Assembly (NCBI GenBank): GCA_052034235.1
Contig: JBPOIT010000007.1
Coordinates: forward strand, 22,234-86,233
Direction: 5' to 3'
DNA from: Candidatus Levyibacteriota bacterium
Lineage (GTDB): Bacteria > Patescibacteriota > Microgenomatia > Levybacterales > UBA12049
DNA: 64,000 bases
Shown: positions 19,075-39,060 of the stretch, in pieces
Layout of the letters: each line of letters begins with the position of its first letter
How positions within the stretch are numbered: the first letter of the stretch is position 1
Made by a program: the position numbers and the translations under genes
Notes under the pieces: generated by a model
Databases searched by the model: none
The model's input: the letters and a program-made list of their open reading frames with translations, nothing else
Told to the model about the DNA's origin: nothing

Positions 19075-19109
19075 ATGTATAAGTATTCTCCATTTCGTCA
19101 ATAGAATTG
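19075..19109 (+). promoter_or_regulatory. conserved late intergenic motif ATGTATAAG-N14-TCAATAGAATTG (copy 1, before portal)
   Basis: One of 7 near-identical copies. Like the others it lies just after the upstream stop codon, here 6 nt before the portal ATG. Confidence 0.5.
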
Positions 19110-19115
19110 TTGGGT

Positions 19116-21080
19116 ATGGGATTATTGGATAGATTTAGACAAAAGCAAACCGCCATCAACACTTCAATTTTTTCTGTCCTTTTTGGTAGGGAAGCTCCAA
19201 ACATGAAGGGACCGGAATTCTTAGGAGCATATAAAGGTTGGGTATACTCCTGTGTTAATGCGATAGCTGAAGAAGTTTCGACAATTGAACTTCAGTTACA
19301 ACGTCTTACCTCTGATGGATGGGTTGAAATTCCTGAGCATTTAGCGCTTTCAACTCTTGCTGATGTAAATCCCTTTATGTCTTCTTCAGATCTGCTTATT
19401 GCAACACAATCATTTTTAGAGCTTGAAGGAAACGCTTTTTGGTATTTACCACGAGGATCTGTAACTAGAAAGCCTGCTGAGATATGGCTTCTTGATCCAA
19501 CAAGAACGTATGTGGTTAAGTCTGCAACCGAGTTTATTGGCGGATACGTATATAAAAACGAAAAAGGTGAGGATGTTCCTTTTAAGCGAGAAGAAATAAT
19601 CCATTTCAAACGATTCAATCCACAGAATAAATATCGTGGTATGGGTACGGTTCAAGCTGCAGCAATGGCGATTGACATAGATACCTATTCTGCAACTTGG
19701 AATAGGAATTTCTTTTTCAACTCCGCCATGCCTTCCGCAACTCTTGAAACAGCCGGAACATTAACAGCAGAACAATATAACAGAGTCAAGGCTGAATGGG
19801 ATTCCAGATATAAAGGTGTTGATAATGCTCATAAATTGGCAATTTTACAAGGAGGGCTTCATTTCAATCCAATTTCTCTCTCTCAAAAAGATATGGAGTT
19901 TTTGGAGCAAAGAAAGATGTCCAGAGATGAAATATTGGGAATCTTTAGAGTACCGAAAACTATTTTAGGTATTAGTGATGATGTAAACAGAGCAAATGCT
20001 GAAGCGACAGAGTATGTCTTTTCAAAACGTGTCATTAAGACCCGAATGGAATTTATTGTTGATCGGCTTAATGAGTTTTATATTGAAATGTTTGGTGAAG
20101 ACCAAAAGAAGCTCAGATTCACCTATACAGATCCGGTTCCGAAAAATAGAGAGTTGGTATTGCAAGCAAATGAAACAGGAATTAGAGCTGGTTATTTAAC
20201 AATCAATGAAGTTCGAGAACAAGAAGGGAAACAACCGGTAAGCGGTGGAGATGAAATATATTTGCCTCTCAATCTTACTCCTATTGGATCGGTCCAGGAA
20301 GATTCACAAAATAGTCAAAAGAAAGTTCAAAAAGTTATATCACTGGTAAAAAGTACAGATGCTGACCGCGTGGAGAAACGAGTGAGATTTATTCAATCAG
20401 AAATCAAAAACAGACAAGGTGATTACAGGGAGACACTGCTTCTTATTAAAAACTTCTTAGTCAGACGAGTAAAACAGGGTAAAAAGGCAGTTAAGAAAGA
20501 TCCAACTGAAGATATTCTCAGGACCGTATTTGATTCATTCGAAGATACTTTTATTCCTCTGACAGGTAAGCTCAATAAAAATGCTTTGGAAGCTGCATTT
20601 CTATTTGGAGGTAAACAAGCACTCTCTCAACTTGAGACTGATGTAAGTTTTGATCTACAAAATCCACGAGCTGATGAATGGCTTAAAACTAACGCCCTCG
20701 ATCATGCTAAATCAATTGTTTCAACTCTAAAAGACGAAGCAAAAACAAGAATACTAGCAGGATTAAAAGAAGGACTTGGATCTGGGGATATAGCTTCAAA
20801 CCTTTCAGACTTTTTTGATTCTCAATCTTCCTGGAGAGCATTACGAATAGCGCGAACTGAGGTGATTGGTGGCTATGCAGAAGGATCAATCGAAGGATAT
20901 AGACAGTCAGGAGTAGTCAGCATGAAGCGTTGGATTACTGCAGAAGATGACAAAGTAGATGATTCGTGTTCTCAGAATGAAGCAGATGGTCCTATTTCTT
21001 TGGGAGCATCTTTTTCAAGTGGTGATGATGCCCCGCCACTTCATCCCAATTGTCGATGTGTAATAGCACCTGAAATTTAA
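19116..21080 (+). CDS. phage portal protein fused to Mu gpF-like minor head/morphogenesis domain
   Basis: N-terminal ~400 aa are portal-like. The C-terminal ~150 aa carry the MuF/SPP1 gp7 signature (RTEVIGGYAEGS...PLHPNCRCVIAP). The ATG at 19116 sits 6 nt after the conserved intergenic motif; the track start 19107 is TTG. Confidence 0.65.
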   Translation: MGLLDRFRQKQTAINTSIFSVLFGREAPNMKGPEFLGAYKGWVYSCVNAIAEEVSTIELQLQRLTSDGWVEIPEHLALSTLADVNPFMSSSDLLIATQSFLELEGNAFWYLPRGSVTRKPAEIWLLDPTRTYVVKSATEFIGGYVYKNEKGEDVPFKREEIIHFKRFNPQNKYRGMGTVQAAAMAIDIDTYSATWNRNFFFNSAMPSATLETAGTLTAEQYNRVKAEWDSRYKGVDNAHKLAILQGGLHFNPISLSQKDMEFLEQRKMSRDEILGIFRVPKTILGISDDVNRANAEATEYVFSKRVIKTRMEFIVDRLNEFYIEMFGEDQKKLRFTYTDPVPKNRELVLQANETGIRAGYLTINEVREQEGKQPVSGGDEIYLPLNLTPIGSVQEDSQNSQKKVQKVISLVKSTDADRVEKRVRFIQSEIKNRQGDYRETLLLIKNFLVRRVKQGKKAVKKDPTEDILRTVFDSFEDTFIPLTGKLNKNALEAAFLFGGKQALSQLETDVSFDLQNPRADEWLKTNALDHAKSIVSTLKDEAKTRILAGLKEGLGSGDIASNLSDFFDSQSSWRALRIARTEVIGGYAEGSIEGYRQSGVVSMKRWITAEDDKVDDSCSQNEADGPISLGASFSSGDDAPPLHPNCRCVIAPEI

Positions 21081-21082
21081 AA

Positions 21083-21117
21083 ATGTATAAGTTCTTTAAA
21101 GTCCGTCAATACAATTG
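21083..21117 (+). promoter_or_regulatory. conserved late intergenic motif (copy 2, before prohead protease)
   Basis: ATGTATAAG-N14-TCAATACAATTG. Confidence 0.5.
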
Positions 21118-21135
21118 GGTAGGAAATTAAAAACT

Positions 21136-22179
21136 ATGAAGCTTATTCGAAAAACATACCAGGCCGAAACTAAAGCAAGCGGTGAAGATCGCACGCTTAT
21201 TGTAAAGATTTCTACTGCAAATCCTGATCGCTCTAATGATGTCGTAATGCCTAAAGGAGTTATTTTTGATAACTACCAAAAAAATCCGGTTGTTGCATTT
21301 GCTCATAACTACTCCGGACTCTCCATTGGAAAAACTATTGATATTCAAAAAGTTGATGACGGCATAGTTGCTCAAGTCGAGTTTGTGCCAAAAGGTGTCT
21401 ATCCTCTGGCAGATCAACTTTATGAAATGTACAAAGGTGGATTTATGAACGCTTGGTCCATTGGTTTTATTCCAAAAAAATGGAGTGATAGACCAGATGG
21501 AGGCCGCGAGTTCCAGGAATGGGAATTATTAGAGTATTCAGCAGTACTCGTTCCGGATAATCCTGAAGCTTTAACTCTTTTGAGAAGTAAAGGTATCGAT
21601 CCAGAGCCTCTCGTTGAAGAGTCAGAAAATGTAAAACCTGAAGAAGATGTTAAGGAAGATAAGCCGAAAGAAGAACCTAAAGAAGAGAAAGAGGAAGACA
21701 AAAAAACTGTAAAGCTCGAAGAAGTTGATAAAAATGTTGAAAATCCTCAGATAGAGAGTATTGAAGTGGACAGTAAAGAAAAGACTCTTATTCTCCGTTT
21801 TGCTGATAAGAAAACGCTTGAGTTTAAAGGACAGGAAACAGTCTTGGGTTACCTTGATGAGTTACAAACAGCATATCGAGAAGTAAAAGAAGGAAGAGTT
21901 TTGTCCGAGAAGAATAGAAAGCTTGTTTCTGACTGCTTAACATCACTGAAAAGTACAGAATCGGCACTTCAGGCTCTTGTAGATGCTTCTGAGAAAGAGC
22001 CAAAAGAAGTTTCAGATAGCAACCAAGTAGTGGTTATCGATCTTGCACAGGCACTAAGGGTCATTGATAAAGTGGCCGGTGTCGCGCTACGCGATTTAAA
22101 GCGCAAGGTCAATGGAGAACTGGGCATAGTACCCGAAGACTCCCGTGTTCCAATCGAAATAGGAAAGAAAGAGGGGTGA
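21136..22179 (+). CDS. HK97-family prohead protease with C-terminal scaffold-like acidic coiled-coil domain
   Basis: N-terminal S78-like region (TANPDRSNDVVMPKGV...VAFAHN) followed by a 150-aa E/K-rich helical region. AGGAAA RBS before ATG 21136. Confidence 0.6.
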   Translation: MKLIRKTYQAETKASGEDRTLIVKISTANPDRSNDVVMPKGVIFDNYQKNPVVAFAHNYSGLSIGKTIDIQKVDDGIVAQVEFVPKGVYPLADQLYEMYKGGFMNAWSIGFIPKKWSDRPDGGREFQEWELLEYSAVLVPDNPEALTLLRSKGIDPEPLVEESENVKPEEDVKEDKPKEEPKEEKEEDKKTVKLEEVDKNVENPQIESIEVDSKEKTLILRFADKKTLEFKGQETVLGYLDELQTAYREVKEGRVLSEKNRKLVSDCLTSLKSTESALQALVDASEKEPKEVSDSNQVVVIDLAQALRVIDKVAGVALRDLKRKVNGELGIVPEDSRVPIEIGKKEG

Positions 22180-22186
22180 AATAAAT

Positions 22187-23272
22187 ATGGATGCAAATCA
22201 AAAAGTAATGACAATGGATGAGTTTACTAAGTTCTTCTCTGATCTCATGGATCAAAAAATCCGTGATATGGGGCTTGATAAGGTAGATAGAAAGCATGGT
22301 GTCTTTCCTTCAAAAGATGATCCGAATGGTGATGGTTTAGAAAATCTCACCAAGGAAGAGAAAGTTAAGAAGTTTTTGAAAGCCATTATCGACAACGATA
22401 GTGTTACTGCAAAAGCTCTCTCTGAGGGTACATCTGCTGATGGTGGATACCTGGTCCCGAATGAATTTAAGGCGGCGATTATAGCAAAGCGAGATGTCGC
22501 AGCTGTAATTAGGCCACGAGCTACAGTTTTCCCAATGACAAGAGACAAGATGGATGTTCCATCTGAGGGAAACGCAGTAACCCTTTATTGGGCTGCTGAG
22601 AACGCTGCTCTTACCGAATCTAATCCAACATTTGGCAATACAACGCTTAACACTAATAAGCTTACCGGTTTATCAAAAATGAGCCGTGAGTTATTTGGTG
22701 ACAGTGCAGTAAATCTTATGGATTTCTTAGCTGGGCTGTATGGTCGAAAGTTTGCTTTGGAAGAGGATAAGAAGTTCATGACTGGAACGGGTACTGGCGA
22801 ACCGAAAGGTATTCGTCAATACACGCTTACTAACGCTGCACAAGCCGCAGCTAACTTAGCTGCAGATGATCTCGTCAAATTGTTCTATACACTTGGCTCT
22901 CAATATCGAAGTCAATCAACTTGGATACTGCATAACAGCATTATTCGATTGATAAGGTTGCTCAAAGATTCCAATGGTCGCTATTTGTGGACCGATGGAT
23001 TCCAAGATGCACCGGCAACGATTCTGGGAAGACCAGTTGTTGAAGAAAACGATATTCCAACCAATTTGGGTGCTGGAACGAATGAATCTGAAATATTCTT
23101 CGGTGATCTTTCTTACTATCTCATTGGAGATAGGCAGGAGATGACTATTGAATCAACAACCGAGGGTGCTGGAACGTTTGAGAATCATCAGGTTGCTGTA
23201 AAAGTTCTTGAGCGTGTTGATGGACAGCTCGGTCTAACCGATCCATTTGTCAAACTGACAGCAGTGAAATAA
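22187..23272 (+). CDS. phage major capsid protein (HK97 fold)
   Basis: 361 aa directly after protease/scaffold; composition and size typical of HK97-like MCP (GGYLVPNEF..., TGTGTGEPKGI...). Confidence 0.7.
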   Translation: MDANQKVMTMDEFTKFFSDLMDQKIRDMGLDKVDRKHGVFPSKDDPNGDGLENLTKEEKVKKFLKAIIDNDSVTAKALSEGTSADGGYLVPNEFKAAIIAKRDVAAVIRPRATVFPMTRDKMDVPSEGNAVTLYWAAENAALTESNPTFGNTTLNTNKLTGLSKMSRELFGDSAVNLMDFLAGLYGRKFALEEDKKFMTGTGTGEPKGIRQYTLTNAAQAAANLAADDLVKLFYTLGSQYRSQSTWILHNSIIRLIRLLKDSNGRYLWTDGFQDAPATILGRPVVEENDIPTNLGAGTNESEIFFGDLSYYLIGDRQEMTIESTTEGAGTFENHQVAVKVLERVDGQLGLTDPFVKLTAVK

Positions 23273-23371
23273 TAGTTTATTTCTGCTCTGGCTCTTAAAG
23301 GTGTTTGGGAGATTCACCAATTTAGGAGTCAGGCAAAAGTAAAGTATTTAAAGAAAAGGAGGTGAATTAAT

Positions 23372-23635
23372 ATGACGCGAGTAGTTAAATTTATAAAACC
23401 ATTTTCAGTCTATGCAGTAGACGATATTGCAGGTCTTACCGAATCGGAAGCGAGAGCAGCAATCGAAGCTGAAGCTGCGGTTCCTTATAAAGCTGAAAAA
23501 CAGATTGAAAAAGAATCAGAAAAAGTTAAAGAAGATCCTAAAAAGGAAGAGCCTAAAGAAGAAACTGATGAGACAAAATCTGTTGATTCACCTGTTGAAG
23601 ACAAAATGGCAAAAAATGCACCTGTAAAGAAATAA
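23372..23635 (+). CDS. hypothetical acidic head-region protein
   Basis: 87-aa ORF with AGGAGG RBS; E/K-rich tail. Confidence 0.3.
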   Translation: MTRVVKFIKPFSVYAVDDIAGLTESEARAAIEAEAAVPYKAEKQIEKESEKVKEDPKKEEPKEETDETKSVDSPVEDKMAKNAPVKK

Positions 23636-23637
23636 AA

Positions 23638-23672
23638 ATGTATAAGAGTCTTTAGATCTCTTAATACAATGA
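23638..23672 (+). promoter_or_regulatory. conserved late intergenic motif (copy 3)
   Basis: ATGTATAAG-N14-TTAATACAATGA. Confidence 0.45.
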
Positions 23673-23687
23673 TGCAGGAGTACACCT

Positions 23688-23876
23688 ATGGAAGATAAAC
23701 AGAAAAAACAGGAAACCAAAAAGCCTTTAACCAATAAGGATATTCTTGAGTCTCACGGACTTGTTGAGATTTACGATGCTTCAATTGGTGCTTATCGACA
23801 AGTACCAAAAGAGGAAGCTGAAAAAATGGTTGAAAAGCTTGAGGAAATTAAAAAGGCAATGGAGGGTAATAAATAA
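23688..23876 (+). CDS. hypothetical small protein
   Basis: 62-aa ORF preceded by the conserved late intergenic motif. Confidence 0.3.
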   Translation: MEDKQKKQETKKPLTNKDILESHGLVEIYDASIGAYRQVPKEEAEKMVEKLEEIKKAMEGNK

Positions 23877-23877
23877 T

Positions 23878-24489
23878 ATGAATCCAGTACCTCACGAAAC
23901 AGGACAAGGTTTTGATTCTCTCGGTGTAAGTCGAGGATATAACATTCATGACAAAGCGTTTTATAAGACGCGTTGGAAGATTGATAAATGGGACTTTGCT
24001 CCTGAAGTGAGAAAACAAGCTGAAGCAGATATGCGGTCGGGTATGTCGTTTGCAGCTCTTATTGATAAGTACGGGGCAAAATCTTATGTAGGAAAAGAAC
24101 TAGTTGAGGGAAATCTACTTTTAAATGAGGGTATCAATGCAATCTGGACTCTAGTTGCTGGTGGATCTGAAACCGCTTTTAATAACGCTAATGCAAGACT
24201 TGGCGTTGGAGATTCAAATACTGCTGAATCAGCAGCTCAAACCGACTTACAAGCTTCCACAAATAAACTTTTTAAAGCTATGGATGCTTCTTATCCAACG
24301 TACGGGACCAGCCAAAAGATTACTTTCCGTTCAACTTTTGGATCTTCTGAAGCGAATTATGCCTGGCAAGAGTTCTCAGTTGATAATGGTTCAACTCCTC
24401 TGAAGAACCTAAACCGCAAAGTTTCTGCTCAAGGAACTAAAACCTCTGGTCAGACATGGCAGCTAACATTAGACATCACACTCTCTTAA
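23878..24489 (+). CDS. hypothetical head-region structural protein
   Basis: ATG at 23878 immediately after the previous stop; the longer 23746 form overlaps and was not used. Confidence 0.35.
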   Translation: MNPVPHETGQGFDSLGVSRGYNIHDKAFYKTRWKIDKWDFAPEVRKQAEADMRSGMSFAALIDKYGAKSYVGKELVEGNLLLNEGINAIWTLVAGGSETAFNNANARLGVGDSNTAESAAQTDLQASTNKLFKAMDASYPTYGTSQKITFRSTFGSSEANYAWQEFSVDNGSTPLKNLNRKVSAQGTKTSGQTWQLTLDITLS

Positions 24490-24492
24490 TAT

Positions 24493-25041: not shown

Positions 25042-25049
25042 ACATATGT

Positions 25050-25736: not shown

Positions 25737-25737
25737 T

Positions 25738-26382: not shown

Positions 26383-26383
26383 T

Positions 26384-26917: not shown

Positions 26918-28477
26918 ATGTCATTTATACAAAGAAGATCACCATTTTTTAGTAACAAACCACTTACACTCACTTTTGTAACAGTGGATTTATCCGATAC
27001 TGGTTCAGGTGCAGAAACTCTTTCGCTCTTGAACTTAGTTAATTTGGCAGAATCAAGTTTAGGATGGGATGCAATCGCTCCTCTACTCCTACTTGAGCAG
27101 TTTGAATCAATTTCAGGTTGGGATCAGGATCAAGGAACATGGCAAGTGGCAGGAAATCAACTTGATCCGGTATCACAAAGCGCGCCTAACTGGGGAGGTA
27201 TGGTTCTGACCAAAAATGTAAGTTATCAAGACTTTGATGCTTACATGAGAATTAAAAGTCCAACGGATAATAAAGGTATCCAGTTTATTTTCCGGACAGG
27301 ATCAACGGAAGGCTCAGGATACGGACTTCAACTTCGTTTAAATGATGGCAATTTCAGGATTGAAAACTGGGGCGTAGCGAATTTATCTAATGTTTCGTAT
27401 TCCTATACGAATGATGTTTACTATCGAGTAAGAGTTCGGGTTCGTGGATCAAATATAAAGGCAAAGATATGGCTTGATGGAAACACAGAGCCTTCAAGTT
27501 GGAATATTGATTTTAACGATACTACCTTCCCAAATGCTGGAAAGGTTGGTTTTTCATCTGAAGATTCAATCAGTTGGTTAGTTGATTGGTTAATTATTGA
27601 ATCATACGATGTAAATATTTTAAGTTTTATTCCAGTTTCTGATTCAGGAGGTGGAAGCGAAGCCATAAGCTTACTTGCTCAAGTTGCTCTCAGTGATTCA
27701 GCATTTGGGACCGATGCAATTAATATACTTGCACAAATTGCTCTTTCTGATTCCGGAAGCGCGACAGAAGCACTATCGGCACTGGTTACGATCTCTTTAT
27801 CTGATAGTGGAACTTCGAATGAGGCATTATCAATTGTAGTAAGTTTGCTCTTAAATGATTCCGGAAGTAGCTCTGAAGCTCTCTCAATAATTATTTCTTT
27901 CCTTATATCTGATACAGGTTCACATTCTGATGTAATCGATATATTAGCAATGGTCGCTATCTCAGATAGCGCAGTAGCAAATGATACATTAACAGCTTTG
28001 GTTTCTCTGGCGATCTCGGACTCTGGTTCTCACGCAGACGCAGTTTCTATCCTCGCTTCAATAGGAGTCGCAGATACAGGAATAGGAGATGAAATATTAT
28101 CTATTCTTGCTCAAATAAATCTTTCAGATAGCGCTCAAGGAACTGAAACACTTCAAATTCTTAACTCTTTTATTCTTTCTGACTCAGGACTAGGGGTTGA
28201 AAGCTTAAACATCTTAGCTCAAGTGGCAATAGCTGATAGTGGAAGTATTTCATCTGAAGCAATTTCAATTATTGCCGGTGTTGCGGTTTCAGATTCAGTA
28301 AGTGCGACAGATGCACTATTTACCCTAACTATTGTGGCTCTTTCAGATTCTGGTATTGCCGAAGAAGCGGTAACTGCTGGGTTGGCTTCTGGATTATTCG
28401 CGAGAGGATCATCCCTCTACGATCTAAAAGCCAAATTATATAACAAAACAAGCGTAGGTCTTTACAATAAAAAATAG
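26918..28477 (+). CDS. LamG/DUF1080-like domain protein with 13x tandem ~20-aa (A/I)LS(D/L)SGxxxEALSILAQV repeats
   Basis: N-terminal ~230 aa resemble a concanavalin/LamG-like jelly roll (GIQFIFRTGSTEGSGYGLQLRLNDGNFRIENWG). The C-terminal 260 aa are 60-nt tandem coding repeats. Confidence 0.45.
   Translation: MSFIQRRSPFFSNKPLTLTFVTVDLSDTGSGAETLSLLNLVNLAESSLGWDAIAPLLLLEQFESISGWDQDQGTWQVAGNQLDPVSQSAPNWGGMVLTKNVSYQDFDAYMRIKSPTDNKGIQFIFRTGSTEGSGYGLQLRLNDGNFRIENWGVANLSNVSYSYTNDVYYRVRVRVRGSNIKAKIWLDGNTEPSSWNIDFNDTTFPNAGKVGFSSEDSISWLVDWLIIESYDVNILSFIPVSDSGGGSEAISLLAQVALSDSAFGTDAINILAQIALSDSGSATEALSALVTISLSDSGTSNEALSIVVSLLLNDSGSSSEALSIIISFLISDTGSHSDVIDILAMVAISDSAVANDTLTALVSLAISDSGSHADAVSILASIGVADTGIGDEILSILAQINLSDSAQGTETLQILNSFILSDSGLGVESLNILAQVAIADSGSISSEAISIIAGVAVSDSVSATDALFTLTIVALSDSGIAEEAVTAGLASGLFARGSSLYDLKAKLYNKTSVGLYNKK
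27650..28400 (+). repeat. tandem 60-nt in-frame coding repeats (about 13 units)
   Basis: Repeated gctctttctgattccgg / ...agtgattc... units encoding SDSG/SDSA-containing 20-mers. Confidence 0.7.
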
Positions 28478-30227: not shown

Positions 30228-30230
30228 AAA

Positions 30231-30265
30231 TGTATAAGACTTCGGGTATTCCTCAATAGAATTAG
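30231..30265 (+). promoter_or_regulatory. conserved late intergenic motif (copy 4, before a ~48-aa ORF starting at 30274 and the major tail gene)
   Basis: ATGTATAAG-N14-TCAATAGAATTA. Confidence 0.5.
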
Positions 30266-30416
30266 TTCGGATATGAAGAAATATAAATACTCAGGTTCAG
30301 TTGAAGTCCATATTGCAGGTGTCGGTATTGTAAAGCCTGGTGCTGAGGTGGAGACAGAAATTGAAATCAATCATCCAGATTTTAAGGAGATCAAAAAGAA
30401 AGAGGATAAATAACCT

Positions 30417-31367
30417 ATGTCAGCTGGACAATTAAATCAACTATCATTCAAACGAGAATCCACATGGGGAACTGCTGTAGTTCCCGATAAGTCTATTCCG
30501 GTCCATTTCTCCGGAGGAATTCAGACTGACAATGACACACAAATAATCTCAAATGCTCGCGCTGTTCTTCCTAAGAATCAAGACGCGTTCTTAGGTGCAA
30601 GAAAACATGAAGGAGAGTATGAGTTTGATCTTTTTGGAGATTATATCGGCTATTTCCTTCTCTCTGCTCTAGGTAGTATTTCTTCAGCTTTAAAAGGTGG
30701 AGAATCAGTTGTTTATAACCACACAATTACTGAACAGGAAACAAAACAACCTTTAACACTTGAACAGGTAGTTGGTGAGAATGTCAGACGATATGCCGGA
30801 GCGATTGCAACCGGATTTAAGATTTCCTCTAAAGCCGGTGAAGTTGCAGTAATGAGCGCTTCATTTAAGGCAAAATCTCAAGCATCTGCTACAAAAATTA
30901 CACCTGCCTATACTACAGCTCCAGTTTTTGACTTTACAGATGCGGCACTTAAGATCGGTGGAGTCCAAGTTACTGAAGTATCTAACTTCGAACTTGAATA
31001 TAAAAATAATATTGAATTTTTGGCTGCTCTTAATAACACCAACGATCCAGCTTTTAACTATGTAAAAGGCTCTGAGATCAAGGGAAAGATTGATATGTAT
31101 TTGGATAATACAACTCTTGCTGAAATGACAGCCTATCTTGCCAAGACCAATAGAGCTTTGGATGTTGTATTTACCGGAGATGCTATCGGGACTTCTTCAA
31201 ACTATGCTCTTGCAATTAGTATTCCAAAAGTTGTTTATACAGCAGCTGAGACAAAACTTTCGGACGACTACAACTTATTAAGTATCGAGTTCGAAGGATT
31301 GTATGATACTTCAACTTCAAAACTATTATCGGCAGTATTAACAAATTTACTAGCTAACTTAAACTAA
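30417..31367 (+). CDS. major tail (tube) protein
   Basis: 316 aa immediately upstream of the chaperone/frameshift pair and the tape measure gene. Confidence 0.5.
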   Translation: MSAGQLNQLSFKRESTWGTAVVPDKSIPVHFSGGIQTDNDTQIISNARAVLPKNQDAFLGARKHEGEYEFDLFGDYIGYFLLSALGSISSALKGGESVVYNHTITEQETKQPLTLEQVVGENVRRYAGAIATGFKISSKAGEVAVMSASFKAKSQASATKITPAYTTAPVFDFTDAALKIGGVQVTEVSNFELEYKNNIEFLAALNNTNDPAFNYVKGSEIKGKIDMYLDNTTLAEMTAYLAKTNRALDVVFTGDAIGTSSNYALAISIPKVVYTAAETKLSDDYNLLSIEFEGLYDTSTSKLLSAVLTNLLANLN

Positions 31368-31368
31368 T

Positions 31369-31743
31369 ATGGAACCAATTGAATTTACTACTCCTGGACA
31401 GTACAAAGTGCTTATAAAGCCATATTTGACCTATGGTGAGTATAAGCAGATCAAACAGAGCATAAAAGACCATATTATGGTCGAATTGTCAGCAAGCGGT
31501 AAAGCTGAAGATATAAAAGCTGAGGATGTTAAATTCCAGCCTATCAGTTTGGCTAGTATTTTGTCCTCAAATGATATTGCTTTAAAGATTCTAGTCAAAA
31601 AAGTAACCGATAAAGATGGAAAAGACTTAGGAGATCCGGCGCAAGCAATTGATAACATGCCAATTGAAGATGCAGATTCAGTTGTTGAGAAGGTAAACGA
31701 GATCACAAAGGCTGCTGAACTCTCAAAAAAAAAGGGGATTTAA
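31369..31743 (+). CDS. tail assembly chaperone (G-like, zero-frame product)
   Basis: 124-aa acidic ORF ending KKKGI-stop, with an A9G4 slippery run at its 3' end, located between the major tail and tape measure genes. Confidence 0.6.
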   Translation: MEPIEFTTPGQYKVLIKPYLTYGEYKQIKQSIKDHIMVELSASGKAEDIKAEDVKFQPISLASILSSNDIALKILVKKVTDKDGKDLGDPAQAIDNMPIEDADSVVEKVNEITKAAELSKKKGI

Positions 31744-31958
31744 TTTCTGCTAAGGTCTTCCAGGCTTTCTACTCCGAAAACTTTCGTGTTTTTCCTGATG
31801 AAGTTAGGACCGTTTGGGTATGCGATATGTTGGGGATTACCTATTCTGAGCTTATTAAACAACCGGCTGAATGGGTGAATATGTATATTGTCTATCTGGA
31901 AGGTAAATCAAAAGCAGAGAAACAAAAAATGAAACAGAACCAAAGTAAAAAAAGTTAG
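31369..31958 (+). CDS. tail assembly chaperone -1 frameshift fusion product (G-T-like)
   Basis: A -1 shift at A_AAA_AAG (31728-31734) enters a 72-codon ATG-less ORF (GDLISAKVFQAFYSENFRVFPDEV...KQNQSKKS) that ends at 31958. Confidence 0.55.
31728..31734 (+). promoter_or_regulatory. programmed -1 ribosomal frameshift slippery heptamer A_AAA_AAG
   Basis: X_XXY_YYZ heptamer in the zero frame of the chaperone gene, 3 codons before its stop. The downstream -1 frame stays open for 72 codons. Confidence 0.55.
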
Positions 31959-32103
31959 TCTTTTTTTGATAGCTTTATTGAGAACTCATATATCTTTCTA
32001 ATCCCTCTAGTCATAAAAAGAAGACCATCTACAAATGCTGGAAGAAAGATCAGGCGAATACTTTTTCCGATTAACTTTTTTGAATTTTCCAAAGGATTTT
32101 GCA

Positions 32104-32140
32104 TTTTATATAAGATCGAGATCATTCCTCAATACAATTT
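32104..32140 (+). promoter_or_regulatory. conserved late intergenic motif (copy 5, variant, before tape measure gene)
   Basis: TTTTATATAAG-N14-TCAATACAATTT. Confidence 0.4.
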
Positions 32141-32180: not shown

Positions 32181-34073
32181 ATGGAAGAAAGAATCCTCGA
32201 AATCGTTTTAAAAGCAAGAGATGAAGCCTCAAAAGAAATTCAGAATGTGGGGAAGGAAGCTGGTGGATTAGCTAATCTCTTAGCCGGATCATTTAAAAAT
32301 GCTGCAATTCTATCTGGTGCGGCTCTAGCGGGTATCGCTGTTGAGGCGGTCCGATCAGTAGGAGCATTTGAAGAATCCCAAGCTGCAGTAGCACAACTTG
32401 AAACAGTATTAAAATCAACCAGAAATGCAGCTGGATTATATAAAGATGACTTAATAGAGCAAGCTTCGGCTCTTGAAAGAGTAACTTCTTATTCGGATGA
32501 AGCAATTATCGGCACTGAAAATTTACTTCTCACATTTACAAATATTAAAGGAGCAATTTTCCAGCAAGCACTTCCAGCAGTTTTAGATATGTCTCAGGCT
32601 CTAGGACAAGATTTAAAGTCCTCCTCTATTCAGTTAGGTAAAGCACTAAACGATCCTATTCAGGGTATTACAGCGCTTCGAAGAGTCGGAGTTTCTTTTA
32701 CTGATTCGCAGCAAGACATGATTAAGTCTTTAGTCGAGAGCGGAAAAACAATTGATGCTCAAAAGATGATTTTGAAGGAGATTCAAACTGAGTTCGGAGG
32801 AAGTGCCGAGGCAGCAGGCAAAACTTTTGCTGGATCTGTAACAAGACTTAAGAATCAAATTAATAACCTCGAAGAATCACTTGGTGGAATAATTGTTAAT
32901 GCACTTCAACCCTTCATTGATAAAGCTTCTAATGTAGCAACTGTTCTTGTGGAGTTTTTTAACGGTGCAAAAAGCCTCGATGATGTTACCAAATCACTAA
33001 AAGAAAACTTCGGGGGGTTTGGGGAGGTACTCGGAAACATTATTACTTTCTTTGCTACTCATCGAGAAGCAGTTATAGCATTAGCCGGAGCAATCGGTGG
33101 GTTCTTAGCAATAGCTCTCATTGCTGCAGGAGTGGCAATGGCTTCATTTATCGGCCTTTCGCTTCCTGTTATCGGTATCGCAATGTTGATAGGTGCTGCA
33201 GTTGCACTTCTAATTGCAAACTGGGGTAATATTTCCGGCTTCTTTATCAATTTATGGAATAGTATTGTTGCCAAATTCAATGAAGCAAAACAATTTGTGA
33301 TTGATATTTTAACTGCAATCTGGACTGTTGTTGGTCCTATTCTTCAGTCAATTTTTGATACTTTCTCAACGATTTTTAACGCTATTTGGGCAGTCGTTTC
33401 ATATGTATTTAATTTTATCTGGACTCTTATTCAGTTTTACTTCTATATCTATCTGGCAGAGATACAACTTGTACTTGGTCTAATTCAAGCTGTCTGGAAC
33501 GCAATTTGGGGAGCAATAGGACCATACGTTACAGCGATTTGGGAAGGAATTAAAAATATTATTTCCGGAGCAATTAATGGAGTAAAAACGATTATCACCA
33601 GTGTCCTTACTGCAATCAGTCAAATATGGGAAAACTCCTGGAAAGAAAAATACGAGACTGTTGTTTCCTGGTTTACGAAAATTCATAACTATATCTCAGA
33701 TGCAGTAAATAAGGTTAAGGGATTTTTTCAGGACTTGGCAAATAGCATTACAAATATCTTGTCAAACATCCATATTCCCACGCTTCATATAGAAACAGAA
33801 ACAAAAGAAGTAATGGGACAAAAGATTCAAGTTCCTAAGCTCGGTTGGTATGAGCAGGGTGGATTTGTGCCAGAGACAATGCTGGCGGTCTTACACAAAG
33901 GAGAATTTGTTTTATCAAAGAATATGCTTGCAGGTAATCAACCGGCTCCAATTCCAGGCAATTCTTACAGTACTCCTATTTCAATTGGTCCTGTATATGT
34001 TTCTGATTTAGGAGACGTTGATACATTAGCCCAGAGATTAGCTTTCTTTATGCAAACTAGCGGAAATCTATGA
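32181..34073 (+). CDS. tail tape measure protein
   Basis: 630 aa, helical N-terminal half, central hydrophobic/TM-like block (AIGGFLAIALIAAGVAMASFIGLSLPVIGIAMLIGAAVALLIA); position after the chaperone pair. Confidence 0.7.
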   Translation: MEERILEIVLKARDEASKEIQNVGKEAGGLANLLAGSFKNAAILSGAALAGIAVEAVRSVGAFEESQAAVAQLETVLKSTRNAAGLYKDDLIEQASALERVTSYSDEAIIGTENLLLTFTNIKGAIFQQALPAVLDMSQALGQDLKSSSIQLGKALNDPIQGITALRRVGVSFTDSQQDMIKSLVESGKTIDAQKMILKEIQTEFGGSAEAAGKTFAGSVTRLKNQINNLEESLGGIIVNALQPFIDKASNVATVLVEFFNGAKSLDDVTKSLKENFGGFGEVLGNIITFFATHREAVIALAGAIGGFLAIALIAAGVAMASFIGLSLPVIGIAMLIGAAVALLIANWGNISGFFINLWNSIVAKFNEAKQFVIDILTAIWTVVGPILQSIFDTFSTIFNAIWAVVSYVFNFIWTLIQFYFYIYLAEIQLVLGLIQAVWNAIWGAIGPYVTAIWEGIKNIISGAINGVKTIITSVLTAISQIWENSWKEKYETVVSWFTKIHNYISDAVNKVKGFFQDLANSITNILSNIHIPTLHIETETKEVMGQKIQVPKLGWYEQGGFVPETMLAVLHKGEFVLSKNMLAGNQPAPIPGNSYSTPISIGPVYVSDLGDVDTLAQRLAFFMQTSGNL

Positions 34074-34900
34074 TAAGTTCACTAAACATTCGATCAACGA
34101 CATTTAATACTGGAAGTAATTTCTTTATTACTGAACTTCCTGGTCTTGAAATGCCTCCGATGCGAGTTGTTAATTATAACTTAGCAGGTGAGCATTTTGG
34201 ATTGTATGTTTCTGCGTTTTACGGGAAAAGAAGATTCTCTATCAAAGGATGGGTTGTCGGTAGTTCTCAGTCTGATTTTCAAACACAAAGAGATCAGTTG
34301 CAAAGAGATTTAGATATAACAAGTGGTGAGATTCCAATTAATATAACGCTTGTTAATGGAAGACAACTTACAATCAATGCAATTCTTATTGCGCTTGATT
34401 TTTCTCCGAAGCCTGGAGAATTAACAGCAACACAATTTAACGCTTCTTTTGATGCCTCTTTCCCTTTTTTAGTTTCTCAAACTGAAAATTCACAAAATAT
34501 TAACCTGGCAACCGGTGGAGGAGGAAAAGTACCACCGGATACCATGCCGATGGCACTTGCACCTGATTCAGGTGGAGCTAACTTTATCATCAATAATGGT
34601 AATGCTCCTTACTATCCTTTTGCTCGAATAACCGGTCCTGTTTTAAATCCATCACTCCGAAATAATACTTCTGGAAAGGTTGTTAGATTTGCAGTGAATC
34701 TAGCTGCAGGTGAATATATAGACATTGATTTCAAAAGAAAGACCATTTTTGATAATCAAGGAAGGAATCAGTATTCCACAAAATCTGGTGATTGGTGGTT
34801 TCTGCAGCCTGGTACTTCAGAGATTCGTTTTCTGGCCGACTCCTATGATGCTTCAGCAGTCGCAAATATTAAGTTTAGAGATAGTTTCTTAGGAATATAG
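34070..34900 (+). CDS. distal tail protein (putative)
   Basis: 276-aa ORF overlapping the TMP stop by 4 nt; synteny. Confidence 0.4.
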   Translation: MISSLNIRSTTFNTGSNFFITELPGLEMPPMRVVNYNLAGEHFGLYVSAFYGKRRFSIKGWVVGSSQSDFQTQRDQLQRDLDITSGEIPINITLVNGRQLTINAILIALDFSPKPGELTATQFNASFDASFPFLVSQTENSQNINLATGGGGKVPPDTMPMALAPDSGGANFIINNGNAPYYPFARITGPVLNPSLRNNTSGKVVRFAVNLAAGEYIDIDFKRKTIFDNQGRNQYSTKSGDWWFLQPGTSEIRFLADSYDASAVANIKFRDSFLGI

Positions 34901-34901
34901 T

Positions 34902-35936
34902 ATGGGACTTTACGAATTTCTTATTAAAGATAAAAGTGGAAATGTAATTGCCTCTTTGGATTCAGCAAAAGAGAGATCTTTTGAAGTTTATTTGAACAAG
35001 TCAGGTGCTGCAGGCTTTACAATTTCACCAACAGATCCAAAAGTTACTCAAGATTTACTGTTGTTAGGCAATAAAGAGCTTTACATTTATCGTGCAGGAA
35101 CGCTTGTTTGGGGAGGAGAATTAGGTTATAGAAAAACCGATGTTGCAGATGGTCGCGAAGGAATCATGGTTACTGCAAAAGGTTTTATTGATTTACTAAG
35201 CAAAAAAATAATAGGGAGTGCTGCGACTCCTAAGCTCTACACCAATACTGATGCTGGACAAATTGCCTGGGACATTATTAATACAGTTCAAACCGGCACA
35301 AATGCTTCTTTTGGAATTACTGCAGGGAGTATTCCAGCCTCTGTTAATAGAGATCGAACATATGAATTTAAAAATGTTAAAGATGCTATTGAAGGTTTGT
35401 CTTCACTCAATATTAATAATGGGTTTGATTTTGAGATTGATGCTAACAAGCAGTTTTCAGTTTTCTATCCGCGAAAAGGATTAGATAAATCTGATCTTGT
35501 TTTTGAATATGGTAAAAACATTCTTTCTTTTTCGGAAACCCTGGATGCAACAGATATGGCGAATGAGATATTGGTTTTAGGTTCAGGAAATGGTTCTGAG
35601 ATGATTACCTCTGTTCGCGACTCAAACGCTACTACTCAGTCTCAATACAAAGTAAGACAAAAAGTAATCTCTTTTAAAGACGTTATAGAAACCGCAACGT
35701 TAAACGACAATGGAGATAAGGAGCTTTCACTACGACAGGTTCAGCAACAAATTATTTCACTGAAAACAAAAGGAAATCTTGAACCATTTTATGGATCGTA
35801 TGTTGTGGGAGATTCAGTAAGAGTAAAGATTAAGTACGGAATTATATCGATTGATTCGCTTTTTAGAATCTATGGAATAAAAGTAAAAATTTCCGATGAT
35901 GACGATGAAGATATAGAGTTAGTATTCAATCCTTAA
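34902..35936 (+). CDS. tail-associated/baseplate protein (putative)
   Basis: 344-aa ORF after the distal tail protein; synteny. Confidence 0.4.
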   Translation: MGLYEFLIKDKSGNVIASLDSAKERSFEVYLNKSGAAGFTISPTDPKVTQDLLLLGNKELYIYRAGTLVWGGELGYRKTDVADGREGIMVTAKGFIDLLSKKIIGSAATPKLYTNTDAGQIAWDIINTVQTGTNASFGITAGSIPASVNRDRTYEFKNVKDAIEGLSSLNINNGFDFEIDANKQFSVFYPRKGLDKSDLVFEYGKNILSFSETLDATDMANEILVLGSGNGSEMITSVRDSNATTQSQYKVRQKVISFKDVIETATLNDNGDKELSLRQVQQQIISLKTKGNLEPFYGSYVVGDSVRVKIKYGIISIDSLFRIYGIKVKISDDDDEDIELVFNP

Positions 35937-35937
35937 T

Positions 35938-36171
35938 ATGGCATTACAAAAATCAATTATTGAAGAAATAAAAGACTTAAAGGATAGGCTTGATTCACTT
36001 GAGAGGGCGAATCAGGTAAAAAACATCAAAATTCCAACTGGAGGAAAGATGGTGGTTAATGCTGAGGCTTCCGATCCGCCGGTTCAGAATGGAAAGATTT
36101 ATTACAACACTACAACCAATAAGTACAAGGTTTGTGAGAATGGCACCTGGAAAACAATTACTACTTCTTAA
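35938..36171 (+). CDS. hypothetical small tail-region protein
   Basis: 77-aa ORF. Confidence 0.3.
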   Translation: MALQKSIIEEIKDLKDRLDSLERANQVKNIKIPTGGKMVVNAEASDPPVQNGKIYYNTTTNKYKVCENGTWKTITTS

Positions 36172-36174
36172 TTT

Positions 36175-36208
36175 TGTATAAGATTTCCGCTTTCCATCAA
36201 TAGAATTA
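36175..36208 (+). promoter_or_regulatory. conserved late intergenic motif (copy 6)
   Basis: TGTATAAG-N14-TCAATAGAATTA. Confidence 0.5.
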
Positions 36209-36214
36209 TTCAGC

Positions 36215-36529
36215 ATGGACCCAATAGAAGATACTCAGGCTGAAGAAACGCAGCCAAAACCAGTTGAAACAGTAGATAAAGCGCTTGAAGAGCGTGTGGC
36301 AGTTCTGGAAGAAAAAGTTGCAGCTCTTGAGCCGAAAGTATCAGATGTCGAGGAGGCAGTTAAGCCAATCCGGCAGACTTTGCAAGTGGTTATTGAAAGA
36401 GAAGGTAGTGTTACCAAAGTTCGAAGAAAAGTATTAGTAACTATTGCCGGAAATAGCCAAGAGAAATGGGAAGACGCGACTGAGGAAGTCGATCCACAAG
36501 TAAAGGAGGACTTATTAAATGGCACATAA
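36215..36529 (+). CDS. hypothetical acidic coiled-coil protein
   Basis: 104-aa ORF preceded by the conserved late intergenic motif. Confidence 0.3.
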   Translation: MDPIEDTQAEETQPKPVETVDKALEERVAVLEEKVAALEPKVSDVEEAVKPIRQTLQVVIEREGSVTKVRRKVLVTIAGNSQEKWEDATEEVDPQVKEDLLNGT

Positions 36530-37490
36530 AGTAGCAGTCATTAACGGTAAACAGCCATCAGGAGGAACAGGTGGTGTTTCTGATGCCGATTTATCGAATA
36601 TCGGAGTCAATTTCCTCAATAAAGGGGTCGTGAAGGCCAATGATTATAAAGTCGCTGCTCAAGGTACTCCAAACATGACAGTTCAGGTTGCAGCTGGTAT
36701 TGCTTATTGTTTTAAGCCGGATGGATCAAATGTGTATGTTAGCAATCTTGATACAGCCCAAAACGCGACAATCGGAGCAAATGCTTCAGGTAATCCAAGA
36801 ATAGACTCGGTTGTGATAAAAATCGATCTAGGTGTTACTCCAAACAATCTTGCTGATAATGTAGCCACTATAGTTGTTGTTCAGGGTACTCCGGCCGCTT
36901 CACCAACTGCTCCCTCAGATTCGGCAATTCAAACTGCTGTAGGATCTGGAAATCCATTTCTAAGACTGGCGGATATAACAGTTGCCAATGGTGCGACATC
37001 TATCACAAACGGAAATATTACCGATCCAAGAGTTGCTGTAGAATTCAAACTCCTTTCCGGAAGAATCAGATATAATCTTTCAACCAGTAAGCTTCAGTTT
37101 TCGAATGACGGGACCACCTATAAAGATTTCGGTTCAGCTGGATCTACACCGACTTTTACAGTGGTTGGCACTCTTTCAGTTAATACTTCGGTAACACCTC
37201 TCCTGATTGCTCCAATTCCATTAAATATTAAAAAAGCCTTTGCAAGAGTAAAAACTGCTCCAACCGGTCAAGCTCTTATTGTCGATATTAATAAGAATGG
37301 TACTTCAATCTGGAATACAAATCAGGCAAACAGACTTCAAATAGCCGCAACTGCAAATTCTGGATCTCAAACCTCTTTTGATACTACCTCCCTTGCTGAA
37401 GGTGATTATTTAACTCTCGATATTGACCAGGTTGGTTCAACAATTGCAGGAGCGGATTTAACAGTTGAGATTCTTTGTGAAGGAGCCTAA
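36519..37490 (+). CDS. tail fibre/receptor-binding-like protein (putative)
   Basis: 323 aa, Ser/Thr/Asn/Gly-rich beta-rich composition typical of fibre proteins. Confidence 0.35.
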   Translation: MAHKVAVINGKQPSGGTGGVSDADLSNIGVNFLNKGVVKANDYKVAAQGTPNMTVQVAAGIAYCFKPDGSNVYVSNLDTAQNATIGANASGNPRIDSVVIKIDLGVTPNNLADNVATIVVVQGTPAASPTAPSDSAIQTAVGSGNPFLRLADITVANGATSITNGNITDPRVAVEFKLLSGRIRYNLSTSKLQFSNDGTTYKDFGSAGSTPTFTVVGTLSVNTSVTPLLIAPIPLNIKKAFARVKTAPTGQALIVDINKNGTSIWNTNQANRLQIAATANSGSQTSFDTTSLAEGDYLTLDIDQVGSTIAGADLTVEILCEGA

Positions 37491-37492
37491 TT

Positions 37493-38662
37493 ATGAACTT
37501 TATTGGATTTGGTAACGGAAAAGATGGGGACTTAGTAGTTTCCTCTGCAAATACCATTATAAACAGCTACACAAGCCTTTCTGCCTCATATAGCGCAGGC
37601 GATAAGGTTTTTAATGTTGCAGATGCCACAAATTTTGCAGTTGGTGACGCAATTATTATTCATCAGTCGAGAGGTACGGGATTTGGTAATACTCAGAAAA
37701 ATAGAATTGAAGGGAAATCCGGAAATCAGCTTACTGTTAGCATTCCTTTTGATTATGGCTATGGAGATGACGGAGGAAACAGGCAGGCTCAAATTATTCG
37801 CTGCCCGGAATATAGTTCTGTAAAGATTAATAATACTGCTTCTATAGCGCCAACTGCTTGGAATGGGGATATTGGTGGAATTATTGCTTATTCATGTAAT
37901 GGGAAAACGACTGTTGATGGTTTCTTCAATTTGAAAGGAAAGGGTTATCGAGGTGGTCTTGGTGCAAATGATGATGCCGGAAGAATTCCTGCTTACTATG
38001 GCGAATCTGGTACTGGTCCCTCTGCGCAAGGACCAGGTGGAATTGATGGAACAGGTGCAGCAAATGGAGCCGGTGGAGGTGCAGGTGGCTCACGATCTGA
38101 TAACGGAGCAGGAGGAGGCGGTGGAGGTCATGCAAACGCAGGATCTAATGGCTTTACTGCTGGCTCAAATCCAAATCCTGGACAAGGTGGATCTTCTGTG
38201 GGTGATGCTGCATTTTCTAGTGCTCACATGGGAGCTGGTGGCGGTGGCGGTGGAATTGATGATTCTACTTATGGTGGACAGGGAGGAGATGGGGCAGGTC
38301 TTTTGTTTGCGGATTCTTATGAGTTTGTAATCAATAACAGCACTGGATATATCGATATGGATGGTACGAATGGTACTGGTCATGGAGATTCAGGAGGCGG
38401 TGGTGGTGGCGCTTCTGCAGGTGGAGCGTTTATCAGAGCTGTAAAAGGTGATATTGGCACTGATCGTATTTATGCAAGGGGAGGAACGGGTGGTCCGGCC
38501 GGTCATGCCTTTGCAGACGGAGGAGATGGTGGTCCTGGAAGTAAAGGAAGAGCAAGAGTTGAAGCCTGTACTCTTTCTGGATCACTCGGCTCATCATTTG
38601 CAGACTATTCATCAGTAGTAGGTGGGAAGGAATGGTGCGGAACCGGCACTGTAATGATGTAA
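37493..38662 (+). CDS. glycine-rich tail fibre-like protein
   Basis: 389 aa with long GGxGG tracts (GAGGGAGGSRSDNGAGGGGGGHANAG; GAGGGGGGIDDSTYGGQGGDGAG). Confidence 0.4.
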   Translation: MNFIGFGNGKDGDLVVSSANTIINSYTSLSASYSAGDKVFNVADATNFAVGDAIIIHQSRGTGFGNTQKNRIEGKSGNQLTVSIPFDYGYGDDGGNRQAQIIRCPEYSSVKINNTASIAPTAWNGDIGGIIAYSCNGKTTVDGFFNLKGKGYRGGLGANDDAGRIPAYYGESGTGPSAQGPGGIDGTGAANGAGGGAGGSRSDNGAGGGGGGHANAGSNGFTAGSNPNPGQGGSSVGDAAFSSAHMGAGGGGGGIDDSTYGGQGGDGAGLLFADSYEFVINNSTGYIDMDGTNGTGHGDSGGGGGGASAGGAFIRAVKGDIGTDRIYARGGTGGPAGHAFADGGDGGPGSKGRARVEACTLSGSLGSSFADYSSVVGGKEWCGTGTVMM

Positions 38663-38666
38663 AACT

Positions 38667-39023
38667 ATGCCAACTCAAGACTTAACAGATCATGACATAT
38701 TAATTACGCTTGTCGAATCGACAAAGAATAACCATACGACTGTTATGGATAAGATTTCTGATGTTAAATCGGATGTTATGGACTTAAAAAGTACGGTTAA
38801 TCTAAAAATTGCAGACCATGAAATCCGTATTAAAGAATTAGAAAAATTGCGAGATGAACTTCAACCGCATACATTAGTTGAAACTCTCAAGAAGAATGAT
38901 AAATGGATTAATGATTTTAAACTTACTTGGAAAGTAACACTTGGTATTGCCTCTGGAATTGCTACAGTCATTGGATTTATTTTGGCAACAGTCGCACAAG
39001 TCTTCAAACTCTTCGGACACTAA
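38667..39023 (+). CDS. coiled-coil protein with C-terminal TM helix (holin-like or tail-associated)
   Basis: 118 aa; C-terminal VTLGIASGIATVIGFILATVAQVF transmembrane segment. Confidence 0.3.
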   Translation: MPTQDLTDHDILITLVESTKNNHTTVMDKISDVKSDVMDLKSTVNLKIADHEIRIKELEKLRDELQPHTLVETLKKNDKWINDFKLTWKVTLGIASGIATVIGFILATVAQVFKLFGH

Positions 39024-39025
39024 AA

Positions 39026-39060
39026 ATGTATAAGGATTAGACCTCATCTCAATATCATTG
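39026..39060 (+). promoter_or_regulatory. conserved late intergenic motif (copy 7, before lysin)
   Basis: ATGTATAAG-N14-TCAATATCATTG, followed by GGTAGG and the ATG. Confidence 0.5.

Follow-up and report, generated by a model that had tools for sequence, protein, structure and literature searches.

The 64-kb window analysed here (the whole stretch of 64,000 nucleotides (nt), from contig JBPOIT010000007.1 of a Candidatus Levyibacteriota bacterium) contains a prophage in whose late region a short two-block element recurs between the genes. We consider it probable that these elements serve as late promoters for a temperate siphovirus that has inserted into a Patescibacteria-like genome, and that their upstream block, a box at the position of a -35 element, is read by a small helix-turn-helix (HTH) protein of the phage. 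The narrower claim that the elements are promoters is very likely correct, judged from their sequence. Our observations concern the motif itself and the constraints on where, on which strand and with what spacing it occurs; they also show that it is conserved across phages and accompanied by the HTH gene.

The prophage is of siphovirus type, spans approximately 11.1-40.4 kb of the window and is transcribed rightward. A search of the window for ATGTATAAG-N14-TCAATAnAATTG, allowing up to three mismatches, returned exactly seven matches, at 19075, 21083, 23638, 30230, 32106, 36174 and 39026. All seven lie on the plus strand, and dinucleotide shuffles gave 0.02 matches on average and never more than one. 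The matches coincide with the seven copies listed in a preliminary description of this DNA, and two of its further statements hold as well: the spacing between the two blocks is 14 nt in every strong copy, and the genes that follow are those for the portal, the prohead protease, open reading frame (ORF) 23688, a small ORF at 30273, the tape measure, ORF 36215 and the lysin. Five of the seven begin exactly 2 nt past a TAA stop codon (ORF ends at 21080, 23635, 30227, 36171 and 39023), and the 5′ flank of the strong copies is usually an A-tract (TAAAAATGTATAAG). When a weight matrix built from the seven was run over both strands of the 64 kb, no other strong copy emerged, the runner-up scoring 7 against 37-50. 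Refinement with related phages added two weaker copies (17227 and 28436) and a doubtful one (15634); seven is therefore a lower bound, and the original count was too low. The copies, in window coordinates, are:

15634..15668, plus strand: doubtful copy, TGGTATAAC-N18-TATACT, within the small ORF 15544-15732.
17227..17261, plus strand: probable weaker copy, ATGTATATT-N18-TATAAT, at the 3′ end of the C5 methylase gene and 8 nt before ATG 17268 of the terS-position gene.
19075..19109, plus strand: copy 1, 5′ of the portal gene; box ATGTATAAG, -10 TAGAAT at 19102-19107, ATG 19116 lying 8 nt past the -10.
21083..21117, plus strand: copy 2, 5′ of the prohead protease/scaffold gene; -10 TACAAT at 21110-21115, ATG 21136 lying 20 nt past the -10, with a weak Shine-Dalgarno (SD)-like TAGGAA.
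23638..23672, plus strand: copy 3, 5′ of ORF 23688; -10 TACAAT, SD sequence AGGAG, ATG 17 nt past the -10.
28436..28470, plus strand: weaker copy, 5′ of the head-tail adaptor gene; TTATATAAC-N18-TACAAT, 12 nt before ATG 28481.
30230..30264, plus strand: copy 4, 5′ of the 46-amino-acid (aa) ORF 30273-30413 and of the major tail gene at 30417; -10 TAGAAT, ATG 10 nt past the -10.
32106..32140, plus strand: copy 5, 5′ of the tape measure gene; TTATATAAG ... TACAAT, ATG 32181 lying 42 nt past the -10.
36174..36208, plus strand: copy 6, 5′ of ORF 36215; -10 TAGAAT, ATG 8 nt past the -10.
39026..39060, plus strand: copy 7, 5′ of the lysin gene; -10 TATCAT, ATG 39067 lying 8 nt past the -10.

Nine related prophage loci (L001 and L003-L010), with portals approximately 44-66% identical to that of the window, were reached through portal homologues, of which hundreds exist. 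The major tail protein, used as a query against viral and genome contigs, retrieved no related loci, and no cultured phage is close, the best portal identity being 28%. The element occupies the same junctions in all nine relatives: before the portal gene, before the protease gene, after the capsid block, before the head-tail adaptor gene and ahead of the small ORF in front of the tail tube gene. Copy 1 thus has a counterpart in front of the portal gene in every one of these motif-bearing loci, and copy 2, which begins 2 nt past the portal stop codon, has syntenic counterparts. Equivalents of copy 4 precede the small ORF ahead of the tail-tube gene in L003-L007, and equivalents of the copy at 17227 precede the same terS-position gene in L001 (5298), L003 (5203) and L005 (6077). 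Copy 5 is the most divergent of the seven. The doubtful copy at 15634 is kept in the closer relatives only, where the protein sequence KWYN...YTRPE is kept too, and is absent in L008-L010; it may be a by-product of coding.

An iteratively refined matrix found 51 matches of at least 15 bits in the window and its nine relatives, all of them on the gene strand and none on the opposite strand, where shuffled sequence gave zero or one. Column counts over these 51 sites yield the family consensus AAA(A/T)-T(G/A)TATAA(G/C), 18 bp, TAnAAT. The most conserved positions overall are the TATAA of block 1, which is its invariant core in the ten phages, and the -10 invariants of block 2 (T, A and the final T), with counts of 50/51 for T28, 51/51 for A29, 50/51 for A31, 47/51 for A32 and 50/51 for T33. 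Within block 2, the TCAA preferred by the window copies reaches only 60-80% conservation in the family. The spacer varies freely, and the blocks are not complementary to each other. Block 2 therefore carries the conservation pattern of a sigma-70-type -10, including T-12, A-11 and T-7, that is, TAnnnT with a near-invariant second A and sixth T. With the hexamer set at -12 to -7, block 1 falls at -38 to -31. As the preliminary description had remarked, no sigma-70-like -35 accompanies this hexamer: 16-18 bp upstream of the -10, where TTGACA would be sought, stands T(G/A)TATAA(G/C), which in no register agrees with TTGACA at more than three of its six positions. A consensus promoter scan did not report the plus strand of the elements.

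The motif is confined to one part of the phage genome and, as far as the sequences scanned extend, to one group of phages. All 51 matches lie downstream of the conserved HTH regulator gene, within 149 kb, whereas the 72 kb upstream of that gene (early phage and host DNA) and the 24 kb of host sequence flanking the window prophage on its right contain none (p ~1e-11). Frequent occurrence in non-phage host DNA, which would have spoken against a phage signal, was thus not seen in the DNA scanned. Across 185,579 representative genomes (596 Gb), the pattern AAAATGTATAAG-N18-TASAAT gave 73 single matches in unrelated AT-rich taxa, close to the number estimated by chance (roughly 35 at uniform base composition, and more in AT-rich genomes); the motif is therefore not a general bacterial signal. 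The sole multi-copy locus was a 4.7-kb Patescibacteria contig with two strong matches, probably a fragment of the same phage family. Literature searches on the box sequence returned irrelevant matches only.

One more distant locus, L011 (portal identity 37%, GC content 45%), has tcaaTATAAT followed by 8 nt and ATG before its portal gene, and TATAAT before its protease gene (9960-10003 and 11920-11972). The box position there reads AGGGCAAAA (portal) and CTGAGAAAA (protease), unlike the family box, and L011 may represent a different specificity class. Its regulator gene lies outside its contig.

The placement of the element relative to genes is as constrained as its sequence. The late genes of the window are packed 1-8 nt apart or overlap, and the element fills all but one of the late intergenic gaps of at least 43 nt. 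Nine copies fall within 23 kb, spread from 17227 to 39026; terminator-like matches are at background level. At 43 of the 51 family sites, all co-directional with the genes, an ORF-opening ATG follows within 25 nt, and the interval separating the last base of the -10 from the ATG peaks sharply at 8 nt. The sites fall into two classes. Where the ATG is no more than 12 nt away (29/51), an SD-like sequence is present in none of the 29, and where it is 13-25 nt away (14/51), nine of the 14 have an SD sequence, positioned at the very start of the predicted transcript. Bacterial RNA polymerases usually initiate approximately 7 nt past the -10, and with such short spacing the mRNAs of the first class would begin at the AUG or 1-2 nt before it. 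Transcripts of the 8-nt class would hence probably be leaderless or nearly so. Two host genes of the window show the same geometry together with an ordinary -35: mraY has TTGCAC-17-TATAAT-7-ATG, and murG has TATACT-6-ATG. Leaderless initiation is therefore plausibly normal in this host. A gene with a 5′-terminal AUG must head its own transcript, which suggests why the promoters are repeated.

The copy at 28436 permits a separate view of the selection acting on the element, because it is embedded in the terminal 14 codons of ORF 26918-28477 (LYNKTSVGLYNKK*). In each of the six phages with such an embedded copy, the first Tyr-Asn pair is encoded by TAT-AAC and the second by TAC-AAT, while the Leu and intervening codons vary. 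Fixed codons amid varying ones imply selection on the DNA of box and -10 and not on the protein alone, and the stretch 28436-28477 appears, from this codon usage, to be constrained both as coding sequence and as promoter.

Two gaps in the late region deserve separate mention. The only late gap without an element, 23273-23371, follows the major capsid gene and holds a hairpin (23273-23345; -31.7 kcal/mol, z-score -4.5) that has no U-tract and is followed by a strong SD sequence (AAGGAGGTG) for ORF 23372. Post-capsid hairpins of differing sequence occur in seven of eight relatives (z-scores -3.9 to -6.4), and the hairpin may raise capsid mRNA levels by stabilising the transcript or by terminating it in part. 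The second gap, 437 nt between a tail chaperone-like ORF (31369-31743) and the tape measure gene, holds only short ORFs in other frames (31743-32106); the gap before the tape measure gene is the usual site of the frameshifted chaperone extension.

The candidate reader of the box, already named as such in the preliminary description, and the ORF that follows it are:

15245..15541, plus strand: gene for a 98-aa protein with a sigma-region-4/LuxR-type HTH, candidate reader of the TGTATAAG box on the strength of domain matches, fold and co-occurrence.
15544..15732, plus strand: conserved 62-aa ORF that abuts or overlaps the HTH gene; detected in eight of the ten phages; without a Pfam or PHROG match.

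The 98-aa protein matches the Pfam family GerE above the cut-off (E=1.7e-6) and Sigma70_r4 and r4_2 below it (~3e-4); its NCBIfam match is to sigma70-ECF region 4, and its PHROG match is annotated as 'RNA polymerase sigma factor'. An AlphaFold2 (AF2) model built with 65 homologues places a four-helix HTH at the C-terminus with a predicted local distance difference test (pLDDT) score above 90, the N-terminal 36 residues being of low confidence. The best fold matches of this model are ECF sigma -35-binding domains and GerE, NarL and DosR-type domains, with which sequence matches in the PDB agree. Homologues of the regulator number 144. The pairing of motif and sigma-region-4-like gene in related phages, anticipated in the preliminary description, is complete: all ten motif-bearing phages have the gene, always in a rightward operon upstream of the packaging genes, and its recognition helix is nearly invariant among them (SLQAVHQIVLRMRKRL). 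In the window it lies 1.7 kb upstream of the terS-position gene. Co-occurrence and gene position are what link this protein to the box, and on that evidence from sequence the proposal that it is the reader is, to our minds, evenly balanced. The 62-aa ORF may be translationally coupled to the HTH gene, and its product is a possible cofactor of the HTH protein.

Another small HTH, in the 50-aa ORF 11385-11537, the first rightward ORF of the prophage, corresponds to the HTH part of the Mor activator family (E=1.2e-6). Considered as a reader of the box, it was rejected: among the relatives it is present in L004 only and therefore does not track the motif.

If these pieces are put together, each promoter would consist of a short A-tract, a T(G/A)TATAA(G/C) box, specific to the phage family, at about -38 to -31, a free 18-bp spacer and a sigma-70-type -10 TAnAAT. 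Host RNA polymerase with its primary sigma would probably open the canonical -10, and the 98-aa HTH protein, expressed from the early/middle operon that directly precedes the packaging genes, would probably read the box; it would either be an activator of class-II type or stand in for sigma region 4. Approximately nine promoters would then fire in parallel at the heads of the modules for packaging, portal, head, neck, tail tube, tape measure and tip, fibres and lysis. The output would be a set of nested transcripts, many of them without or nearly without a leader, given that the start codon follows 7-12 nt past the -10 at over half of the sites and the mRNA would begin at, or within a few nucleotides of, the AUG. 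Leaderless translation would explain why a gene has a promoter of its own in place of an internal ribosome-binding site.

Several points weigh against this proposal. Promoter activity and start sites are both predicted from nucleotide patterns. The preferred start may lie 1-2 nt upstream of the AUG, which makes strict leaderlessness uncertain, and the copy at the terS position (17227) is weak, scoring below 15 bits with the refined matrix. The domain of the HTH protein cannot be told from that of LuxR/GerE-type regulators; these normally dimerise on dyads, and the box is no more than a weak palindrome (TTATATAA in some copies). Box and recognition helix are both unvarying in the ten phages and show no co-variation. 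Finally, the box could have a different reader, namely the host primary sigma, an alternative sigma or some other protein of the phage.

The strongest competing explanation extends this last point. It holds that the promoters are read wholly by host factors, whether the primary sigma, an alternative sigma or the alpha subunit (in the manner of an UP element), and that the phage HTH protein has some other role. A fully canonical -10 would suit such a reader, as would a box that is invariant even though the portals are only 44-66% identical, which is what a conserved host reader would produce; the A-tract would also stand near the proximal UP subsite, if knowledge of Escherichia coli promoters is a guide. 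We nevertheless regard this explanation as unlikely. Neither the approximately 34 kb of host DNA in the window nor the host flanks of L004, L006 and L008 contain a match, and the host promoters here carry a -35 of TTGnnn type. The distant L011 combines the same -10 with a different box, and the motif in multiple copies is absent from the 185,579 genomes save for one Patescibacteria contig.

Asymmetric sites in short intergenic gaps, in one orientation relative to transcription, are the hallmark of the stoperators of mycobacteriophages L5 and Bxb1. The elements share this arrangement, and with an HTH protein available they might be repressor-binding silencers that block promoters or elongating polymerase in the lysogen. 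Such a function is improbable in view of their distribution, which is restricted to the late region: in none of the ten phages does a copy occur in the early/immunity region that precedes the HTH gene, which is where a genuine operator should be present. Moreover, a roadblock needs neither a -10 at a fixed 18 bp nor a constrained distance to the ATG, and the HTH gene belongs to a rightward early/middle operon beside the packaging genes and not to a divergent immunity module.

Regular placement between cistrons, after stops and before starts, would equally be expected of signals acting at the RNA level on one long late transcript, such as processing sites, anti-termination sites (nut/put-like) or translation enhancers, and the preliminary description had offered an anti-termination or processing signal as the counterpart to a phage-specific late promoter. 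The data do not bear out an RNA signal, which we judge highly improbable: folding compared with shuffles gave z-scores of -0.5 to +2.3 at six sites and -1.9 at the seventh, so that there is no conserved RNA fold, and no Rfam family reached its gathering score in 11000-48000. The free spacer and lack of complementarity between the blocks point the same way, the conserved columns fit a DNA -10, and antitermination signals act once per operon, not nine times. The phage-specific late promoter, by comparison, is favoured by the -10 invariants, the single strand, the position downstream of the HTH gene and the spacing to the ATG. Scarcely credible, lastly, is the notion of antisense promoters sending RNA into the preceding gene, for although the minus strand of the window copies reads TTGAnn-N16-TACATT and a promoter scan flags it in four copies with 9/12 matches (19101, 21109, 32132 and 39052), in the relatives conservation reaches only 60-80% for the TTGA (TCAA on the plus strand) and 69% for the would-be -7 T, the invariant TATAA would sit in the minus-strand spacer, for which no conservation is expected, and it is the plus-strand distance from -10 to ATG that is constrained, so that the plus-strand reading explains the conservation and the minus-strand reading does not.

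Late promoters recognised with the help of a phage protein have precedents. Among the Ltr late activators of Gram-positive temperate phages, the hypothesis for LtrA (family II, Sigma70_r4) is that it recognises the promoter of terS (Quiles-Puchalt et al., 2013, PMC3753634), and RinA is a related type of late activator (Ferrer et al., 2011, PMC3152322). These systems are described with a single promoter region, 5′ of terS, for the entire late operon, and the activator is needed for the morphogenesis and lysis genes (PMC3753634; RinA, PMC3152322). By domain and gene position, the phage of the window is comparable to those with LtrA and RinA: it is a temperate siphovirus with a small (98-aa) sigma-region-4-like protein, without other sigma regions, encoded upstream of terS and the packaging genes. 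Unlike the Ltr phages, it has no single terS-upstream promoter for the whole operon but approximately nine copies distributed through it, with the terS-position copy the weakest, and its host belongs to a different phylum.

A parallel for the overall strategy comes from the Thermus phage Lalka27a (and phiYS40, as cited there), in which late promoters sharing a class-specific consensus are numerous and collinear genes are not separated by terminators (bioRxiv 10.64898/2026.04.20.719267). Most of its transcripts lack a leader and open with the start codon, and a phage factor is inferred to change the specificity of RNA polymerase; the late signature is an unusual -10, TAGGGT, together with a C at -25 (bioRxiv 10.64898/2026.04.20.719267). 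Dense predicted late promoters without terminators between collinear genes, and a proposed phage factor that alters polymerase specificity, are features shared with the window phage, whose -10-to-ATG geometry (mode 8 nt) would be compatible with leaderless starts. The preliminary description regarded the positional regularity of the copies within one operon as unusual; several internal late promoters in one operon do have a precedent in the dense late promoters and leaderless transcripts of Thermus phages (bioRxiv 10.64898/2026.04.20.719267). The two differ in that the -10 of the window phage is the canonical TAnAAT and its specificity resides in an 8-9 bp box at -38 to -31, and in phage family and host phylum.

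The architecture of a host-type -10 plus a phage-specific box that replaces the -35 is also that of the middle promoters of T4, which combine a MotA box at -30 with a sigma-70 -10, depend on sigma appropriation by MotA and AsiA and are present in many copies per genome. No match to the MotA or AsiA family was found among the phage proteins scanned; unlike T4, the phage of the window is temperate and has a single small sigma4-like candidate. Short asymmetric intergenic repeats in one orientation near start codons are likewise known as stoperators in cluster A mycobacteriophages, where their sequence is that of the operator at the early promoter and their distribution spans early and late regions, and as start-associated sequences (SAS) in cluster K, which include the ribosome-binding site. 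The element differs from both: it has a -10 at fixed spacing, occurs in the late region only and contains no SD sequence. Of all these systems, the LtrA/RinA-type activators and the late promoters of Thermus phages come closest.

A bolder form of the proposal, which we put forward as speculative and unlikely to hold in full, is that the 98-aa protein acts as a free-standing sigma region 4 module. It would replace region 4 of the host sigma and retarget the polymerase to TGTATAAG boxes, while host region 2 opens the -10, and this would be coupled to obligatory leaderless expression with one promoter per module; the 62-aa protein encoded immediately downstream possibly takes part. Such a one-domain 'sigma swap' would differ from appropriation by MotA and AsiA and, if true, would constitute a new way for phages to redirect host RNA polymerase.

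Almost nothing is known of how phages of the Candidate Phyla Radiation (CPR) time their expression or of the promoter and translation-initiation signals at work in this radiation, and our literature searches on Patescibacteria phage promoters and on leaderless mRNAs in CPR found nothing specific. Against this background, the element provides a sharply defined late-promoter consensus, common to a large family of uncultivated phages, together with a candidate regulator and the prediction that many late mRNAs are leaderless. It also offers a simple rationale for internal promoters, namely that leaderless genes must each sit at the 5′ end of a transcript, and it could serve as a sequence tag to recognise and orient the late regions of such prophages in metagenomes.

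The surroundings of the element bear on the nature of phage and host. To the left of the prophage, at 2563-10156, the window carries the cell-wall/division cluster murF-mraY-murG-ftsA-ftsZ. The left part of the prophage encodes an AAA_24 protein, a Lin1244-type replication protein, the small HTH, a ParB-like protein, the C5 methylase and the products of the terS- and terL-position genes. These are followed by head genes (portal with a Mu-F domain, S78 protease, HK97 capsid protein, head-tail adaptor and neck proteins) and by tail and lysis genes (tail terminator, tail tube, tape measure, tip and fibre proteins, lysin). Homologues named 'Patescibacteria group bacterium' and 'Candidatus Woykebacteria', together with one Patescibacteria contig, indicate Patescibacteria/CPR hosts.

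In the window (9008-11537), in L004 (GCA_003589615.1, 1-1800) and in the P0105 contig alike, ftsA-ftsZ immediately precedes the prophage, and this shared neighbour suggests that the insertion site is conserved. No integrase was found among the window ORFs scanned; L008 and L011 carry a serine recombinase. Within the relatives, the terL-portal junction, just upstream of the portal promoter copy, is a hotspot of insertion: it holds RecD-like helicases in L001 (7419-9935) and cation-efflux and NAD-binding genes on the opposite strand in L005 (7945-9912), and in L008 (8069-10624) the terL-position ORF is 851 aa long, with faint matches to homing endonucleases (LAGLIDADG_3, Hom_end).

To the right of the lysis genes, 40579-45269 encodes a von Willebrand factor A (vWA)-domain protein (CobT_C/VWA, 752 aa) and an AAA_5 ATPase (666 aa), which are either phage cargo or host genes. 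The product of ORF 46249-47295 matches a group II intron reverse transcriptase/maturase (E=5.7e-46, below the family cut-off) and, more weakly, defence-type reverse transcriptases; Rfam reported no group II intron RNA up to 48000. Beyond it, 48115-53078 encodes an adenine-specific DNA methyltransferase-like protein (757 aa) and then a restriction endonuclease-like protein of the BPTD_3080 family (894 aa), and looks like a restriction-modification island.

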